Sequence record: OR637327.1 | Source: Klebsiella phage iPHaGe-KPN-11i | Strand: one strand, 5' to 3' | Length of the DNA stretch: 64,000 nt | In this document: positions 4,042 through 42,900 of the stretch, piece after piece | Layout: every line of letters starts with the position of its first letter | How positions within the stretch are numbered: the stretch's first letter is position 1 | Notes under the pieces: model-generated | What the model was told of the DNA's origin: nothing | The model's input: only the letters and a program-made list of their open reading frames with translations | Database searches by the model: none | Made by a program: the position numbers and the translations under genes

Positions 4042-5067
4042 ATGTATCTTGATATAGAGTTCGCAACTCGTATCATGGGATCATTACCACAAAGCGAAAT
4101 CGTTCGACGGGGTGGGGAATTCAGTATCCATTCCCGTTGTCCGATTTGTGGCGACTCCATGAAGGATAAGCACAAAAAACGTTTTTGGATCTTTCCATCA
4201 AAACGAGGCACACACATGATGTGTGGTTGTTTTAACTGCAACTACAGCAAGCCGTTTTCTGTGTTTCTGAAAGATTATTACCCGGATGATTACACGGCGT
4301 ATTTGATGGAATCTTTCAAGGATCGTAAAGATTTAAAACAGACGCACGAAGAACCGCCGAAGGAAGAAAAGAAATATATTCCTGAATTGCAGTTCTGCGA
4401 ACGTCTGGACACGTTGCCAGAAAATCACCCTATCGTTAAGTATGTTGCAGGTCGTCACATACCTAAAGACAAATATGATCGCCTCTGGTTTACGCGTCAA
4501 TGGCAACACCTGGTTAACTCTGTGAATGCGGACGCATACCCTTTACCGAAGGATGAACCGCGTTTGGTGATCCCTATCTTTGATGCTAAGGGCAAAATCG
4601 AATCATTCCAGGGACGCGCCTTGCGTGACAATGCCGCAGCCAAATACATGACAATCAAAGCGTGTGAGCACTCAACGAAAGTATATGGTCAAGATACCAT
4701 CGATCCGTTGAAACCTGTCTACCTGCTTGAAGGGCCGCTGGATAGCCTGTTTGTAGATAATGCTGGGGCGATTACGGGCGGACAAATGGCGTTGTCTGAC
4801 GTTCCGTATAAAAATATGCGTGTCTGGGTTCTTGACAATGAACGACATCATCCAGATACTACTCACCGCCTTTTAAAATTGATTGAGGCTGGCGAAAAGG
4901 TTGTGTTGTGGGACAAATGCCCGTGGCCGTCAAAAGATATCAACGAAATGATAAAAACTGACGGCGCAACTAAACTTGAAATCATGCAGTATTTGAAAGA
5001 GAATACTGTTTCTGGACTCACGGCGAAACTTCGGTTTAAGTCGTGGGACAAATCACCGAAAAAATGA
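4042..5067 (+). CDS. 61: DNA primase (T4 gp61-like)
   Basis: An N-terminal zinc ribbon CPICGDS...CGCFNCNY is followed by a Toprim-like region. It matches the T4 gp61 pattern and position. Confidence 0.9.
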   Translation: MYLDIEFATRIMGSLPQSEIVRRGGEFSIHSRCPICGDSMKDKHKKRFWIFPSKRGTHMMCGCFNCNYSKPFSVFLKDYYPDDYTAYLMESFKDRKDLKQTHEEPPKEEKKYIPELQFCERLDTLPENHPIVKYVAGRHIPKDKYDRLWFTRQWQHLVNSVNADAYPLPKDEPRLVIPIFDAKGKIESFQGRALRDNAAAKYMTIKACEHSTKVYGQDTIDPLKPVYLLEGPLDSLFVDNAGAITGGQMALSDVPYKNMRVWVLDNERHHPDTTHRLLKLIEAGEKVVLWDKCPWPSKDINEMIKTDGATKLEIMQYLKENTVSGLTAKLRFKSWDKSPKK

Positions 5068-5074
5068 GATTGAT

Positions 5075-5608
5075 ATGACTGATAAAACTCCTGTTTTTAA
5101 TAGCTGTGCGCACTTGGTTAAAGCCGATGATCTGGAAATGGTAGAAGGTTTCTACCGCAATGCATTACAGAACGGAATCGACCCGCTGCAAAAGATGCTT
5201 GACTTGCAAGATCATGCACAGCAAAGCCTGTCTGATACCCTGAATTGGGTTCCACGTCCGAACGAACTGCAAACGTGCGGTGATATCCTGGACTGGCTGA
5301 AACTGCAAGATGATGCGATCGCAGACGAAACCCGCGAACTTTACACCGCTCTGGGTGGTATGTCTCGCGGTGCAAAAGCGGCTTCCGGTGTATGGAAACC
5401 GTGGAAAGCAAATCATCAAGAACTGCGTAGCCAGGTATTCGCAGAAATGAAAGAAGAAGACAAACTGGAAATCTTGTTTGAACTGATTGACCAGTGGCAC
5501 TTCTTCATGTGTAAGTTCCTCGCGTTGGGACTGGATGCGGAAACCATCTACAAGCTGTATGCTCTGAAACAGGCGGAAAACCTGCGTCGTTGGGCGAACA
5601 ACTACTAA
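5075..5608 (+). CDS. 56: dCTP pyrophosphatase (T4 gp56-like, MazG fold)
   Basis: Colinear matches to T4 gp56 include NxCAHL near the N-terminus, GDILDWL, RELYTALGGMSRGAKAASGVWKPWKA and KLYALKQAENL. Confidence 0.85.
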   Translation: MTDKTPVFNSCAHLVKADDLEMVEGFYRNALQNGIDPLQKMLDLQDHAQQSLSDTLNWVPRPNELQTCGDILDWLKLQDDAIADETRELYTALGGMSRGAKAASGVWKPWKANHQELRSQVFAEMKEEDKLEILFELIDQWHFFMCKFLALGLDAETIYKLYALKQAENLRRWANNY

Positions 5609-5790
5609 TGGAAATCGCCGCGCTTTATGCTGTATTCGTTTTGTCTTACATCTTATGCGCGGTGATAACGTATCTCTTCGGATGGTGCGTTTTCCACGTT
5701 AACGGTGTTGACAGAAAAGCCGCTTTGATAGTAATATCATTGCTATGGGTTATAGGTTTTTTCTACGTCATCTATGAGGGGCGAAAATGA
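5608..5790 (+). CDS. small membrane protein
   Basis: The ATG at 5608 overlaps the stop of gene 56 (TAATG). The protein is hydrophobic and 60 aa long. Confidence 0.4.
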   Translation: MEIAALYAVFVLSYILCAVITYLFGWCVFHVNGVDRKAALIVISLLWVIGFFYVIYEGRK

Positions 5791-6074
5791 TTGACAAATA
5801 CTATATCATTGTTACGAAAGACAAAGACGGCTTTACTATTCCATACGTTGAAAACGGGAAAACGCCGGAACTGTTTGCATCACCGCAACTTGCAAAAGAT
5901 AAATTAGATTTTATCCGCAAGTGCTACGAAACCAAACTGAACTACACGCCGGATGAACCGCGTTTCAGTTTCTTCCGCAAAACCGAGCAACTACCAGCAA
6001 CCGAAGAACAGAAAAAAGAGATGCGTTGGTTTATTGAGAATTCGAAAATTCAAGGGGTATTACTCAAATTATGA
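5787..6074 (+). CDS. hypothetical protein
   Basis: A 95 aa ORF with an ATGA overlap into dda. Confidence 0.5.
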   Translation: MIDKYYIIVTKDKDGFTIPYVENGKTPELFASPQLAKDKLDFIRKCYETKLNYTPDEPRFSFFRKTEQLPATEEQKKEMRWFIENSKIQGVLLKL

Positions 6075-7402
6075 GCGAGTTAACATTTGATGATCTGAGT
6101 GACGATCAGAAGTCCGCGCATGATCGCGTTATCCACAACATCCAGAACGCCATTCATACAACTATTACGGGTGGCCCTGGTGTTGGTAAAACAACACTGG
6201 TTAAGTTTGTCTTTAACACTCTGAAAGGGTTGGGGATTAGCGGTATTTGGTTAACTGCCCCAACACACCAGGCTAAAAACGTGTTAGCAGCGGCTACCGG
6301 AATGGACGCAACAACGATTCATTCTGCATTGAAGATTAGCCCTGTGACTAACGAAGAACTGCGTGTGTTCGAACAGCAGAAAGGCAAGAAAGCGCCTGAT
6401 CTGTCTACCTGTCGCGTGTTCGTTGTTGAAGAAGTCTCGATGGTTGATATGGATCTGTTCCGAATCATCCGGCGCAGTATTCCAAGCAACGCTGTTATTC
6501 TGGGACTGGGTGATAAAGATCAGATCCGTCCGGTAAACGCCGATGGACGTGTTGAACTCTCCCCGTTCTTTGATGAAGAAATCTTTGATGTTATCCGTAT
6601 GGATAAAATCATGCGTCAGGCAGAAGGGAACCCGATTATTCAGGTTTCACGGGCTGTACGTGATGGTAAGATGCTGAAACCGATGTCTGTCGGTGATCTG
6701 GGTGTGTTCCAACATGCTAACGCTGTTGACTTCCTCCGTCAGTATTTCCGCCGTGTTAAAACGCCGGATGACTTGATCGAGAACCGCATGTTCGCGTACA
6801 CTAACGACAACGTGGACAAGCTGAACGCAACGATCCGCAAACACCTGTACAAAACAACAGAACCTTTCATTCTCGATGAAGTGATCGTGATGCAGGAACC
6901 GTTAGTTCAGGAAATGCGGTTGAACGGGCAAATCTTCACCGAGATTGTTTATAACAACAACGAAAAAATCCGAGTCTTAGAAATCATCCCGCGTCGGGAA
7001 GTTATCAAGGCGGAGAAGTGCGACGAGAAGATCGAAATTGAATTCTATCTCCTGAAAACGGTATCGCTCGAAGAGGAAACCGAAGCACAGATTCAGGTTG
7101 TTGTTGATCCGGTGATGAAAGACCGTTTGGGTAACTATCTGGCTTACGTTGCGAGCACTTATAAGCGCATCAAGCAACAAACAGGCTATAAAGCCCCGTG
7201 GCATTCGTTCTGGGCGATTAAAAACAAGTTCCAGGATGTTAAGCCTCTTCCGGTTTGTACTTACCACAAATCACAGGGGAGCACGTATGACCATGCGTAC
7301 ATGTACACGCGCGATGCGTATGCGTTCGCAGATTACGATCTGTGTAAGCAGTTAATCTATGTGGGCGTAACCCGCGCACGTTACACCGTTGATTATGTAT
7401 AA
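6071..7402 (+). CDS. dda: Dda SF1B DNA helicase
   Basis: It is colinear with T4 Dda. Shared features include the N-terminal TFDDL...Q, a GGPGVGKTT Walker A, APTHQAK and the C-terminal YVGVTRARYTVDYV. Confidence 0.9.
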   Translation: MSELTFDDLSDDQKSAHDRVIHNIQNAIHTTITGGPGVGKTTLVKFVFNTLKGLGISGIWLTAPTHQAKNVLAAATGMDATTIHSALKISPVTNEELRVFEQQKGKKAPDLSTCRVFVVEEVSMVDMDLFRIIRRSIPSNAVILGLGDKDQIRPVNADGRVELSPFFDEEIFDVIRMDKIMRQAEGNPIIQVSRAVRDGKMLKPMSVGDLGVFQHANAVDFLRQYFRRVKTPDDLIENRMFAYTNDNVDKLNATIRKHLYKTTEPFILDEVIVMQEPLVQEMRLNGQIFTEIVYNNNEKIRVLEIIPRREVIKAEKCDEKIEIEFYLLKTVSLEEETEAQIQVVVDPVMKDRLGNYLAYVASTYKRIKQQTGYKAPWHSFWAIKNKFQDVKPLPVCTYHKSQGSTYDHAYMYTRDAYAFADYDLCKQLIYVGVTRARYTVDYV

Positions 7403-40035: not shown

Positions 40036-40976
40036 AAATCACCTACCAGATCTTTATCAATTTTGGTGTATGTGAGCGCCGGATCATACTTCTCCAGCAC
40101 GTTCTTTTTGCACGAATGGATGAATTTTTCCATTGCGCGGGCTTTCATCAACACTTTGAAATCTTCACCAAAGCATTGTTTGACTGTGGGAATTGCACGA
40201 GCCGCTTTGTCACAATCAATGATCAGCTTGTATTCGCCTTGTGTTGTGGCGACTACCATTGAAATCAGAACACAACCATCAAATCCTTTTTCATTGATTT
40301 TATGGAAGTTCAGCTTATCCGTAGTGCTTGCCAGGTTCGCATAACGATCCCCGCGAATGTTACCCGGAGAACTATACCGAGAAACGTTGATTGAAGGAAT
40401 ACGAATATCTTCAACGATATCACATGACGCAACAGCTTCAACGAAATCAAGAATTCTGGTCGCTTTGATGACATGCGCCTTAAACGAACCGACTTCTAAC
40501 TCATATTCATCTTTCCAGCCTGAATAGTAGTCAACAGCAGGGCTAATCGCTTTCATGAGCGCTTCGGGAATGTCAATGTGCCATAACTGTTCTGCGTACT
40601 GTTTGCGCCAGTCTGGATACGTTTTACGTGCTGGTTTGAATGCACTACCGCCGTCTTCGAACATCATTTCTTTCCTCTCTTTTTCGTAAATGTCGTACAC
40701 ACTTCTTCGTTCGTAAGCGTCTTTTAGGTTGCTGTTTACTATACTATCATGCGTCAGTTCTTCGCAATACTTTTTATCCCATTCAGAACACGCATGATCA
40801 ACCATTTCCTGAAAAACGCGCTGTGGAACATTCCCATCCACAAGAATCCTCAATAAGCGATCAGTATCATCATTCGGTAAAGTATGAAAGTTTTTAGGAA
40901 GTTTAACATAGAAGTTTCTCGCACGAGAAATCAACCATTCTTCACCGCGATCACGTTCAATAGTGTAATCGTACAT
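40029..40976 (-). CDS. hypothetical protein (315 aa)
   Basis: An ORF with a terminator upstream. Confidence 0.5.
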   Translation of the reverse strand: MYDYTIERDRGEEWLISRARNFYVKLPKNFHTLPNDDTDRLLRILVDGNVPQRVFQEMVDHACSEWDKKYCEELTHDSIVNSNLKDAYERRSVYDIYEKERKEMMFEDGGSAFKPARKTYPDWRKQYAEQLWHIDIPEALMKAISPAVDYYSGWKDEYELEVGSFKAHVIKATRILDFVEAVASCDIVEDIRIPSINVSRYSSPGNIRGDRYANLASTTDKLNFHKINEKGFDGCVLISMVVATTQGEYKLIIDCDKAARAIPTVKQCFGEDFKVLMKARAMEKFIHSCKKNVLEKYDPALTYTKIDKDLVGDLC

Positions 40977-41005
40977 AGCAAAAAAGGGGCTTTCGCCCCT
41001 TCCTC

Positions 41006-41602
41006 TTATTTCGCGTTCAGGGAGTCGATGTAAGCGCTAACGTCAGCGGAGGTTACAGAAGCGGCATTTTTGCCACCCAGCAACACATCAATCTTCGTCA
41101 CGATGGTATCGACGCTTACGGAGGTGTGGCCTACAGCGGCGATCACGTCTTCCGGTACAGTCAGACCCAGACTTTCGGTTTGCTTGTTCAGTTCGATGAT
41201 CTCCAGGTTGATTTTGACATCAGCCAGTTTGCGATCCAGTTCGACGACAGAGAGATCAATCTCTTTGTTCATCCCTTCCAGTTCTTCGATCTTCGTCTGC
41301 AAGCCCTGCCAGATGTTACGATGTTGCAGCGCCAGCACATAATGACTGTTGGACACTTCCTGCCCCGCCGCCAGCAGTTTTTTGATCTCCGACTCTTTAC
41401 CAGTGTGAAGGTCTTTGTGTTCTTTGACTTTCTTTTTCAACTTCACGATTTCCTGAACAGCAGAAACGCGAGTATGTTGCAGACGGTCGATCTCTTTGAT
41501 CAGGATACGTGCAGCACTGCGCCAGGCTTCTTCTGGGGAAGTGTTTTGTTCAATTGCAGTTTCAACTTTACCAGTCACGAATGCTACGATTTTCTTGAAC
41601 AT
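41006..41602 (-). CDS. PspA/IM30 (Vipp1, ESCRT-III-like) family coiled-coil protein
   Basis: The N-terminal MFKKIVAFVTGKVETAIEQNTSPEEAWRSAARILIKEIDRLQHTRVSAVQEI aligns with the PspA [35 protein letters not shown]..R...A pattern. The rest is predicted coiled coil, and the ~200 aa size fits. Confidence 0.5.
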   Translation of the reverse strand: MFKKIVAFVTGKVETAIEQNTSPEEAWRSAARILIKEIDRLQHTRVSAVQEIVKLKKKVKEHKDLHTGKESEIKKLLAAGQEVSNSHYVLALQHRNIWQGLQTKIEELEGMNKEIDLSVVELDRKLADVKINLEIIELNKQTESLGLTVPEDVIAAVGHTSVSVDTIVTKIDVLLGGKNAASVTSADVSAYIDSLNAK

Positions 41603-41611
41603 AATTTTACC

Positions 41612-42112
41612 TTATTTTATTTCAAATTGATTGGTGAACCATTCAGGGGCTTTAACAACTTTCCCCTCTCTGATATAACCGATTTTACATAGTTCGTTGG
41701 TCAAGTCAAGTCTTTTTCCACCCACCATGTAAAATTTTAATCTGCTTACTGGGATCACCGGACGGATAACGTCACGATAGCCAAAATTCGAGCTACGCAC
41801 CACTATAGAGAGCATACGCAAACGGTTGATACATCCGGTATACGAACGCCCAGTAGCGCGGGAGAAGTCCTCCAGCGTAACGCCAGGGGCAATAGCACCT
41901 ATCAGATCAAGATAATCCTTTTCAACCCAGAACCGCCCGACAGAACATTTCGATACACCCTCAGCCATTTTTGCGTTTGGGTGTTTCTCGTCTTCGCGCT
42001 TCTTCTTGTCCTCAAGGAACTTATTGAACCGGATTTCTTCGAGTCGGTTTTCTCTTTCTACCCGTGCGCGTACACGGGAGGGAAACAGAGTATCAAGGAT
42101 TTTCCCGATCAT
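41612..42112 (-). CDS. hypothetical protein with a putative HTH
   Basis: A 166 aa ORF. The segment TLEDFSRATGRSYTGCINRLRML is HTH-like. Confidence 0.4.
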   Translation of the reverse strand: MIGKILDTLFPSRVRARVERENRLEEIRFNKFLEDKKKREDEKHPNAKMAEGVSKCSVGRFWVEKDYLDLIGAIAPGVTLEDFSRATGRSYTGCINRLRMLSIVVRSSNFGYRDVIRPVIPVSRLKFYMVGGKRLDLTNELCKIGYIREGKVVKAPEWFTNQFEIK

Positions 42113-42351
42113 ATCGTTGGCTTTCCGTTTGGTAGTTTCAGATCGAAAGGAACGTTCACAGGTCGGACGGTTTCTAATTGGAGATATTGTTCCATCCCCA
42201 CACGCTTACCACCTACTTTGTTATAACGAATGTTCTTTCCGTCATAGCCTACAGCCTGTGAAATGTAGTAGTGTTTAGTTTCGCGTAAACACTCCATCCA
42301 TTCTTGTGTTCCGGTTTTGTTGCGTACCCGCGCCTTTAATGGAAACATCAT
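42109..42351 (-). CDS. hypothetical protein
   Basis: An 80 aa ORF. Confidence 0.4.
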   Translation of the reverse strand: MMFPLKARVRNKTGTQEWMECLRETKHYYISQAVGYDGKNIRYNKVGGKRVGMEQYLQLETVRPVNVPFDLKLPNGKPTI

Positions 42352-42836
42352 TCACCCCGTAGAACTTTCAGTTCACCAGACAAACGCTGTAGATTGGCGG
42401 TTGCAGTATCGTAACGTTTTTCGGTGTCTTTCAGGGTAGTTTCCCGCGCCTTACGCAAGAATTTTTCCAGATCACCTGGTTTCGTCACCAGCTTACCATC
42501 TACGTAAATTCGTCCCAGCAGGTGAGAACAATCCAGCAGTTGTTGCGCGTCGGCTTTTTCAACAGCAGGTTTAAGCGCGACAAACTTTTTAAAGAATCCG
42601 CGATCCTCGTTATCAAACAGATACGAATCTTCGGAATACCATGTTGTGCCATTGGCATCAACGATCCCATTAACACCTTTCCGATCGCAGTGCGTTACCT
42701 TAATCGGAAACACAACAGATGAAAGTTGATTAGGCGATAGAGGACTACCACGCAAAGCTAAATTGCGATACACAGTCCCAAAACTTTCTTCATCGCGAAA
42801 TTCAAAATAGTCTTTTGTCCAGTACATCATTTTCAA
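42348..42836 (-). CDS. hypothetical protein
   Basis: A 162 aa ORF. Confidence 0.45.
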   Translation of the reverse strand: MKMMYWTKDYFEFRDEESFGTVYRNLALRGSPLSPNQLSSVVFPIKVTHCDRKGVNGIVDANGTTWYSEDSYLFDNEDRGFFKKFVALKPAVEKADAQQLLDCSHLLGRIYVDGKLVTKPGDLEKFLRKARETTLKDTEKRYDTATANLQRLSGELKVLRGE

Positions 42837-42840
42837 TACC

Positions 42841-42900
42841 TCATAGTTTCGTTATGTGCAATATAACAAAAGCCCCTCACTTTCGCAAGGGGCTTTTTGA
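42841..42900 (-). promoter_or_regulatory. PeSL-type cassette on the - strand (NrdD terminator plus promoter plus aacgaaac leader)
   Basis: On the - strand the hairpin aaaaagcccCTTGCGaaagtgaggggctttt carries a -35 TTGCGA, followed by a 17 nt spacer, a -10 TATATT and the leader gcacataacgaaac. Confidence 0.5.

Follow-up and report, generated by a model that had tools for sequence, protein, structure and literature searches.

PspA-type proteins preserve membrane integrity (PMC8281802; PMC11237479), and the helical hairpin on which PspA and Vipp1 (IM30) are built is a superfamily architecture that they have in common with the ESCRT-III proteins (Snf7/CHMP, PF03357) (PMC8281802). In bacteria, PspA is encoded in the pspABC operon, which is under the control of sigma-54 and PspF. 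This study concerns a phage gene that appears to belong to the same superfamily. The gene lies at 41006-41602 on the minus strand of a 64,000-nucleotide stretch of DNA from Klebsiella phage iPHaGe-KPN-11i (sequence record OR637327.1), and the whole of that stretch is called the window below. An earlier note, made from the letters of the stretch, had read the 198-amino-acid product as a phage-encoded PspA/IM30 homologue in a small operon with a helix-turn-helix (HTH) protein. We show that the gene is a member of the family of gene e.6 of phage T4, and that homology of residues 1-145 of its product to the a0-a3 core of PspA and Vipp1, that is, the N-terminal helix a0 and the a1-a2/3 hairpin, is supported by sequence profiles and predicted structure. 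T4 is the reference lytic phage, and about half of its genes are without known function.

Identity and distribution of the gene

The minus-strand gene at 41006-41602 is an ATG-to-TAA open reading frame (ORF) of 198 amino acids whose translation, MFKKIVAF...SPEEAWRSAARILIKEIDRL, agrees exactly with the peptide that the earlier note had quoted. It is a real, conserved gene, the product of which matches phrog_1203 with E 7e-75 over residues 1-196 of 198. The window itself is 98% identical to Enterobacter phage EC-F2 and belongs to the genus Pseudotevenvirus, family Straboviridae. The T4 e.6 protein, which has 197 residues, is 32.5% identical to the window protein over residues 2-195, or 98% of the protein (tblastn, E 3e-19), and is the only one of the T4 e-region proteins to match the window, e.2-e.5, e.7 and e.8 being undetected there. 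We assign the window gene as the Pseudotevenvirus orthologue of T4 e.6 (UniProt P39224, Y06Q_BPT4) because it matches phrog_1203, because the T4 gene and the window ORF are each other's single reciprocal match, and because T4p129/e.6 is listed under the same PHROG (PMC11879866 supplement 8). Both genes are surrounded by small genes of unknown function, in a region that is transcribed early. Their immediate surroundings differ, however: in T4 the order is e.8-e.7-e.6-e.5-e.4-e.3-e.2, beside the tRNA cluster and the lysozyme gene e, whereas the window gene comes after nrdD and three unrelated genes.

The family is present in 1184 of 50,697 phage records searched by tblastn, distributed over the Straboviridae and the Ackermannviridae, and the matches include T4, RB69, RB14, JS10 and Aeromonas phage 31 (labelled 'e.6 conserved hypothetical protein'). 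The window protein has 59 close relatives. When 1.84 billion cluster representatives were searched exhaustively with a profile, only 44 clusters at 50% identity came back, most of them of about 195-209 amino acids and the rest shorter partial sequences, with no canonical PspA among them. The family spans many host genera, its named members are large myoviruses in all cases, and one of its clades is that of the Ackermannviridae, with Kuttervirus pertopsoe gp133 as an example. Judged from its sequences, the e.6 family is phage-specific and not a recent capture of a host gene, and the gene described here is a long-known, widely conserved hypothetical gene that is not special to this phage.

In public records the homologues are called hypothetical in nearly all cases, and the label 'phage shock protein A' appears only in a JGI automatic annotation, on an identical protein. 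Several GenBank phage records label e.6 homologues 'host specificity protein', and the UniProt entry from Klebsiella phage UPM 2146 has 'tail completion protein'; both labels are apparently wrong and find no support here. Two near-identical copies, P0025 and P0029, are recorded as belonging to Enterobacter cloacae complex sp. 363J6 and Brucella melitensis; the contigs that carry them are about 174-175 kb long and are most likely complete phage genomes in bacterial assemblies, so that the copies would not be bacterial genes. In an alignment of 15 close relatives (A1), histidines 43, 62, 66, 87, 94 and 159 of the window protein are invariant in the Pseudotevenvirus-like clade and are not conserved family-wide.

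Homology to PspA and Vipp1

Sequence comparisons were made with the window protein, with the narrow alignment A1 and with a 37-sequence alignment of the e.6 family (A2; 21-83% identity). The PspA signal in searches of the PDB emerges only with the A2 profile. Compared with 177,635 distinct PDB sequences, this profile has Vipp1 or PspA as each of its top nine matches (E 5.4e-5 to 2e-3), and the alignments run in register from family residues 1-145 to residues 1-146. The Pfam family PspA_IM30 (PF04012; gathering threshold 33.9 bits) is matched by 7 of the 37 family members at E<=0.01, and two members of the Ackermannviridae clade pass the cut-off, P0078 with 39.0 bits and P0071 with 35.1 bits; the family profile reaches these same two proteins at E 4e-23 and 6.5e-27. 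The alignment of the window protein to PF04012 is likewise in register, from residues 2-144 to profile positions 3-146. Moreover, hhalign of the family with a small alignment of PspA and Vipp1 gives a probability of 94.9% (E 4.4e-8, 142 columns) and a score of 55.4, about 19 standard deviations above 60 column shuffles (12.7±2.2, maximum 19.1), with the reversed alignment at 14.2. Circularly shifted versions re-find the same local alignment and were not counted as controls. The PspA side of this comparison is a shallow profile, because the PspA homologues gathered are all at least 86% identical; against E. coli PspA alone the probability is 63% over 63 columns, and adding Vipp1 and other PspA sequences lifts it to 95% over 142 columns. 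No paper tying e.6 to PspA or ESCRT-III was found in the literature searched, reviews included, where the name 'e.6' is swamped by unrelated text.

The AlphaFold2 (AF2) model has a mean predicted local distance difference test (pLDDT) of 73, with 85-97 in the hairpin, and places helices at residues 2-19, 23-78 and 85-144. The first of them (41546-41599, minus strand) is an amphipathic, cationic helix which, from the model and the profile alignments, is the equivalent of a0: all the profile alignments set it against residues 1-22 of PspA/Vipp1, and its net charge across the family is +1 to +5. Its hydrophobic moment is a moderate 0.39, close to the family mean of 0.41 (0.25 elsewhere in the family sequences), with 0.49 for PspA and 0.61 for Vipp1. 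Residues 23-78 (41369-41536, minus strand) form the first arm of the hairpin, a1, behind an S-P-E-E junction, and residues 85-144 (41171-41350, minus strand) form the second arm, a2/3, beyond a tip of sequence A-G-Q-E-V-S. The amphipathic N-terminus and the long helical part that the earlier note had recognized are both borne out by the model. In a Foldseek search of the PDB the top 13 matches are all Vipp1 or PspA, and the match to E. coli PspA (4whe) has a TM score of 0.78 and a root mean square deviation of 2.5 Å over 123 columns. Both a profile match to PspA_IM30 and a hairpin-based fold, on which the earlier note had staked its case, were therefore found.

Like E. coli PspA and Vipp1/IM30 (7o3w, 6zvr, 8qfv), the predicted structure has an amphipathic N-terminal helix, then a junction of the E/D-P-E type, and a hairpin whose a1 and a2/3 arms match theirs in length and register. 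In the alignments a0 lies on a0, S-P-E-E of the phage protein falls on the E-D-P junction of PspA, and the two hairpin tips meet (N-G-E-E in Vipp1). On the other hand, the window protein is shorter by about 25 residues (PspA) to 70 residues (Vipp1), it lacks the a6 extension of Vipp1, a4-a5 are not demonstrably conserved in it, and the identity of the family to PspA/Vipp1 is only 12-15%, with about 14% to the host PspA. In contrast to the sigma-54/PspF-regulated bacterial operon, the gene is viral, has an early-type promoter before it in T4 and comes without PspB or PspC partners.

With ESCRT-III there are weak fold matches (CHMP2A-CHMP3 and CHMP1B, E about 0.3; a Megaviridae Snf7 protein, E 0.066), but there is no Snf7 profile match (PF03357) at E<=1 for the window protein and none at E<=0.01 for the 37 family members, nor any sign of a Vps4-type partner or a MIM motif. 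The window protein is clearly closer to the PspA/Vipp1 branch than to ESCRT-III. The Pfam comparison that the earlier note had proposed thus came out positive for PspA_IM30 through other members of the family, with the window protein itself below the threshold, and negative for Snf7. As far as sequence profiles and modelled structure can indicate, the e.6 family, with proteins of roughly 200 amino acids, appears to have branched off long ago within the PspA/IM30(Vipp1)/ESCRT-III superfamily and to have diverged strongly. It would retain the membrane-anchor helix a0 and the hairpin, which in PspA is the polymerizing core, and its C-terminal segment is shorter and peculiar to the family.

Proposed role during infection

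T4 e.6 has an early-type promoter directly upstream (GTTTAC-N18-TG-a-TATTAT). In time-resolved omics data it is classed as early RNA and middle protein, and its proteome intensity climbs to about 5-6e9, which is 20-60 times that of the neighbouring genes (e.5 about 1e8, e.7 about 5e7, e.8 about 2e8) (PMC9697503 supplements). This abundance is in keeping with a protein that acts stoichiometrically and forms a polymer. Host transcription is shut off by T4-type phages, and because of this shut-off the host would be unable to induce pspA. We propose, with moderate confidence, that the T4 e.6 orthologue is a diverged member of the PspA superfamily that acts as a phage-supplied, membrane-stabilizing polymer standing in for host PspA. 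The protein, of which the cell would contain much from an early stage, would bind the inner membrane through a0 and polymerize through the hairpin, and would substitute for the host's own PspA, stabilizing or resealing the cytoplasmic membrane and so keeping up the proton-motive force during infection. An energized membrane would in turn be protected from the leaks that accompany DNA injection and superinfection and from premature triggering of the holin. Maintenance of the proton-motive force by the window protein, which the earlier note had suggested, is plausible. In its widest form, which we put forward tentatively and hold for less probable than its core, the proposal is that T4-like and Vi1-like phages bring with them a membrane-repair polymer of the ESCRT-III superfamily, produced in bulk early on, in place of the Psp response that the phage silences; it would seal the lesions of injection and superinfection and hold the membrane potential, so that the phage keeps control of the firing of the holin and hence of lysis timing and lysis inhibition.

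Several results weigh against this proposal, and they are taken here together with the alternatives on which they bear. At the level of homology, the window protein scores 20.3 bits against PF04012 (E 4.6e-4), below the cut-off, and finds other coiled-coil families in the same search at E 0.01-0.1. T4 e.6 has no PF04012 match at E<0.1, and PDB searches with the single sequence or with the A1 profile return only generic coiled coils and no PspA. These narrow searches, the low identities, the unmatched C-terminus and the appearance of the generic coiled coils Rad50, SMC and AhlC close behind Vipp1/PspA in the Foldseek list would all suit a generic coiled-coil hairpin, for instance a cytoplasmic scaffold or adaptor, whose likeness to PspA reflects helical composition or a very old ancestry without common function. 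We consider this quite improbable. The alignment is anchored at the end of the protein and in register from residue 1 onward, taking in a0, the junction of a0 with a1 and the tip of the hairpin; in sequence profile and in fold alike, no coiled coil in the PDB ranks as high as PspA and Vipp1; and neither the distance of the hhalign score from compositional shuffles nor the passage of two members over a curated Pfam threshold would be expected of such a hairpin.

The C-terminal quarter is the next of these points. Residues 145-198 (41009-41170, minus strand) form a family-specific region which, by its conservation in A2, may be a shortened a4-a5. The family's strongest motifs lie in these last 55 residues (L-G-L/I with the invariant G146, E-D-V, V-D-V-D-T and Y191), yet the model has a pLDDT of 35-58 there, with short helices at 164-174 and 185-196. 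Global hhalign lines the C-terminal helices up with a4/a5 of PspA, and shortened equivalents of a4 and a5 are possible. Compared directly with a4-a5 of PspA, the region scores 15.0 against 9.1±2.1 for shuffles, a value reached by 3 of 100 shuffles and so hardly above them; at most, this quarter, which provides polymer contacts in PspA/Vipp1, may correspond to a4-a5. The homology claimed earlier for the protein holds for residues 1-145, by profiles, hhalign and Foldseek; the C-terminal 55 residues could not be tied to a4-a5.

The strong, family-specific conservation of this C-terminus would also suggest a dedicated partner. It is conceivable that the protein repairs nothing itself and that its hairpin engages the host Psp system, co-polymerizing with PspA or binding PspF or PspB/C, or else engages the holin or antiholin, so as to tune the stress response or lysis timing. 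The hairpin region of PspA is the part that contacts PspF, and it is the hairpin that is the most conserved region common to the phage protein and PspA; that e.6 is non-essential is, moreover, what would be expected of a modulator. We nevertheless regard such manipulation of the host as unlikely. The very high abundance of the protein suits a structural polymer better than a regulator, and at about 14% identity it is not obvious that co-assembly with host PspA would be favoured. A conserved partner gene was not found either: all-against-all clustering of the neighbours at nine loci left e.6 as the only gene common to all, and Pfam and NCBIfam searches did not find PspB, PspC or PspF among the neighbours, results which weigh on the proposal itself and count against a Psp system of the pspFABCDE type as well. 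A recurrent neighbour of 300 amino acids was considered as a conserved partner and rejected when comparison of its hidden Markov model with orf315 showed nothing common across clades; the gene immediately downstream was rejected in the same way after PHROG typing.

The genetics of T4 e.6 weigh on the proposal as well. The gene is 'Not Fit' in CRISPRi-ART, that is, without a fitness effect; it tolerates insertions at 43 of 43 sites in HIDEN-SEQ; and it is without a conditional phenotype on delta-rnlA hosts. It is thus non-essential on laboratory hosts. Its transposon mutants were not depleted on RexAB hosts (log2 fold change +0.18, p 0.61), a result in which redundancy with rII is possible because rIIA and rIIB were intact in the experiment. 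This is the single available test of another suggestion of the earlier note, that such a protein might neutralize abortive-infection systems that kill by depolarizing the membrane, and it was negative. PspA-type proteins do preserve membrane integrity (PMC8281802; PMC11237479), and the dispensability of the gene on laboratory hosts and its place in a hyperplastic early region rich in anti-defence genes would agree with a role in counter-defence. However, the PADLOC defence and anti-defence models show no similarity, and occurrence in more than 1000 phages of two families with many host genera argues for a general role over a defence-specific one, so that we assign counter-defence a decidedly low probability.

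Gene block and neighbourhood

The e.6-like gene is the last of four genes on the minus strand, all co-oriented as the earlier note had stated. The first is orf162 (phrog_8646; 42348-42836), followed by orf80 (phrog_6990; 42109-42351), both of unknown function, and by orf166 (phrog_10107; 41612-42112), which is predicted to have a long N-terminal helix and a winged-helix-like core. The orf162/orf80 and orf80/orf166 junctions overlap by 4 nt each, and a gap of 9 nt separates orf166 from the e.6-like gene. Transcription of the block runs along the minus strand, which puts orf162, orf80 and orf166 upstream of the PspA-like gene; the description of an HTH protein and two unknowns downstream of it had read the gene order backwards. 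The block is bracketed by two hairpins, one at 42897-42868, directly after nrdD (45024-42901), and one at 41001-40984, both of which are annotated as terminators in Citrobacter phage Margaery (97% identical). A holin gene is annotated in Margaery at a position expected to map into the window. The second hairpin, read from the sequence and found in a hairpin scan, is an intrinsic terminator directly 3' of the e.6-like gene (40984-41001, minus strand; GGGGC-GAAA-GCCCC followed by TTTTTT). Within 40972-41005 (minus strand) only a few nucleotides separate the end of this terminator's T6 run from the start codon (ATG) of orf315 (40976-40029; phrog_10543, unknown function), and if orf315 has a ribosome-binding site, it would be situated in the terminator stem or next to it.

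The promoter that had been placed upstream of the block does not fare well. A sequence scan finds the nrdD terminator hairpin and an overlapping sigma-70-like site (TTGCGA-17-TATATT, with an extended TG) at 42860-42897 on the minus strand. This site matches the consensus at 9 of 12 positions, and it is one of 3 such sites seen in the region against 2.8 expected by chance; on its own it is no evidence for a promoter. Its -35 hexamer lies inside the nrdD terminator hairpin and the extended -10 directly after it, so that terminator and site overlap at the very start of the four-gene block. A stronger match, TTGACT-16-TAAAAT (10 of 12; 41682-41709, minus strand), lies inside orf166 about 80 nt 5' of the start of the e.6-like gene and is a candidate internal promoter. 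The T4 late-promoter motif TATAAATA was not found near the block in the window.

Calling orf166 an HTH protein goes further than the comparisons allow. Its AF2 model (pLDDT 83) has a long N-terminal helix, helices at 64-72, 80-87 and 91-100 and a beta hairpin, and residues 64-116 have an H-H-H-beta-beta topology compatible with a winged helix-turn-helix (wHTH). The Foldseek list consists mostly of wHTH regulators, with a best E of 0.3; sequence searches gave no Pfam match and a best E of 0.34 in the PDB profile search. Because the fold matches are non-significant and the sequence searches negative, the 'putative HTH' is a weak lead. The orf166 protein has an invariant stretch, A-T-G-R-S-Y ... 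R-L, and matches no solved structure significantly. The gene occurs only in Pseudotevenvirus-like phages. By tblastn at 14 distant loci, orf162, orf80, orf166 and the downstream orf315 were not found beside family members. The four-gene block is a lineage-specific transcription unit and not a conserved system such as the operon of the earlier note; the three upstream genes would be co-transcribed, lineage-specific passengers and not functional partners of the e.6-like gene.

Elsewhere in the family, predicted membrane-protein genes come after e.6, at a distance of up to about 1.5 kb, in T4, RB69, a T4-like contig of IMG/VR and Ackermannviridae loci, an adjacency that may be counted in favour of the membrane role proposed above. 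In T4, e.4, e.3 and e.2 have one or two hydrophobic segments each, and in the Ackermannviridae phrog_11433 is a 'membrane protein'. The stretches concerned are 4628-6246 of locus L018 (T4), 4635-5939 of L017 (RB69), 3147-3740 of L020 (pertopsoe), 5651-6208 of L003, 5646-6179 of L007 and 6283-7070 of L008. At most e.6 loci a gene of 180-260 amino acids comes immediately downstream; it belongs to differing PHROGs and is absent from the window phage.

Significance

Over 1000 sequenced phages, from two families, carry the e.6 gene, and its product is among the more abundant early/middle proteins of T4-infected cells. The window protein adds a new virus-encoded member to a known superfamily. The link to PspA, Vipp1 and ESCRT-III turns an anonymous gene into a specific hypothesis, directly testable in T4, namely that large lytic phages manage the integrity and energization of the host inner membrane with a polymer of their own. 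If that is true, e.6 would represent the first PspA-type system in bacteria to be encoded by a virus, and one of the most abundant T4 proteins of unknown function would acquire a role.

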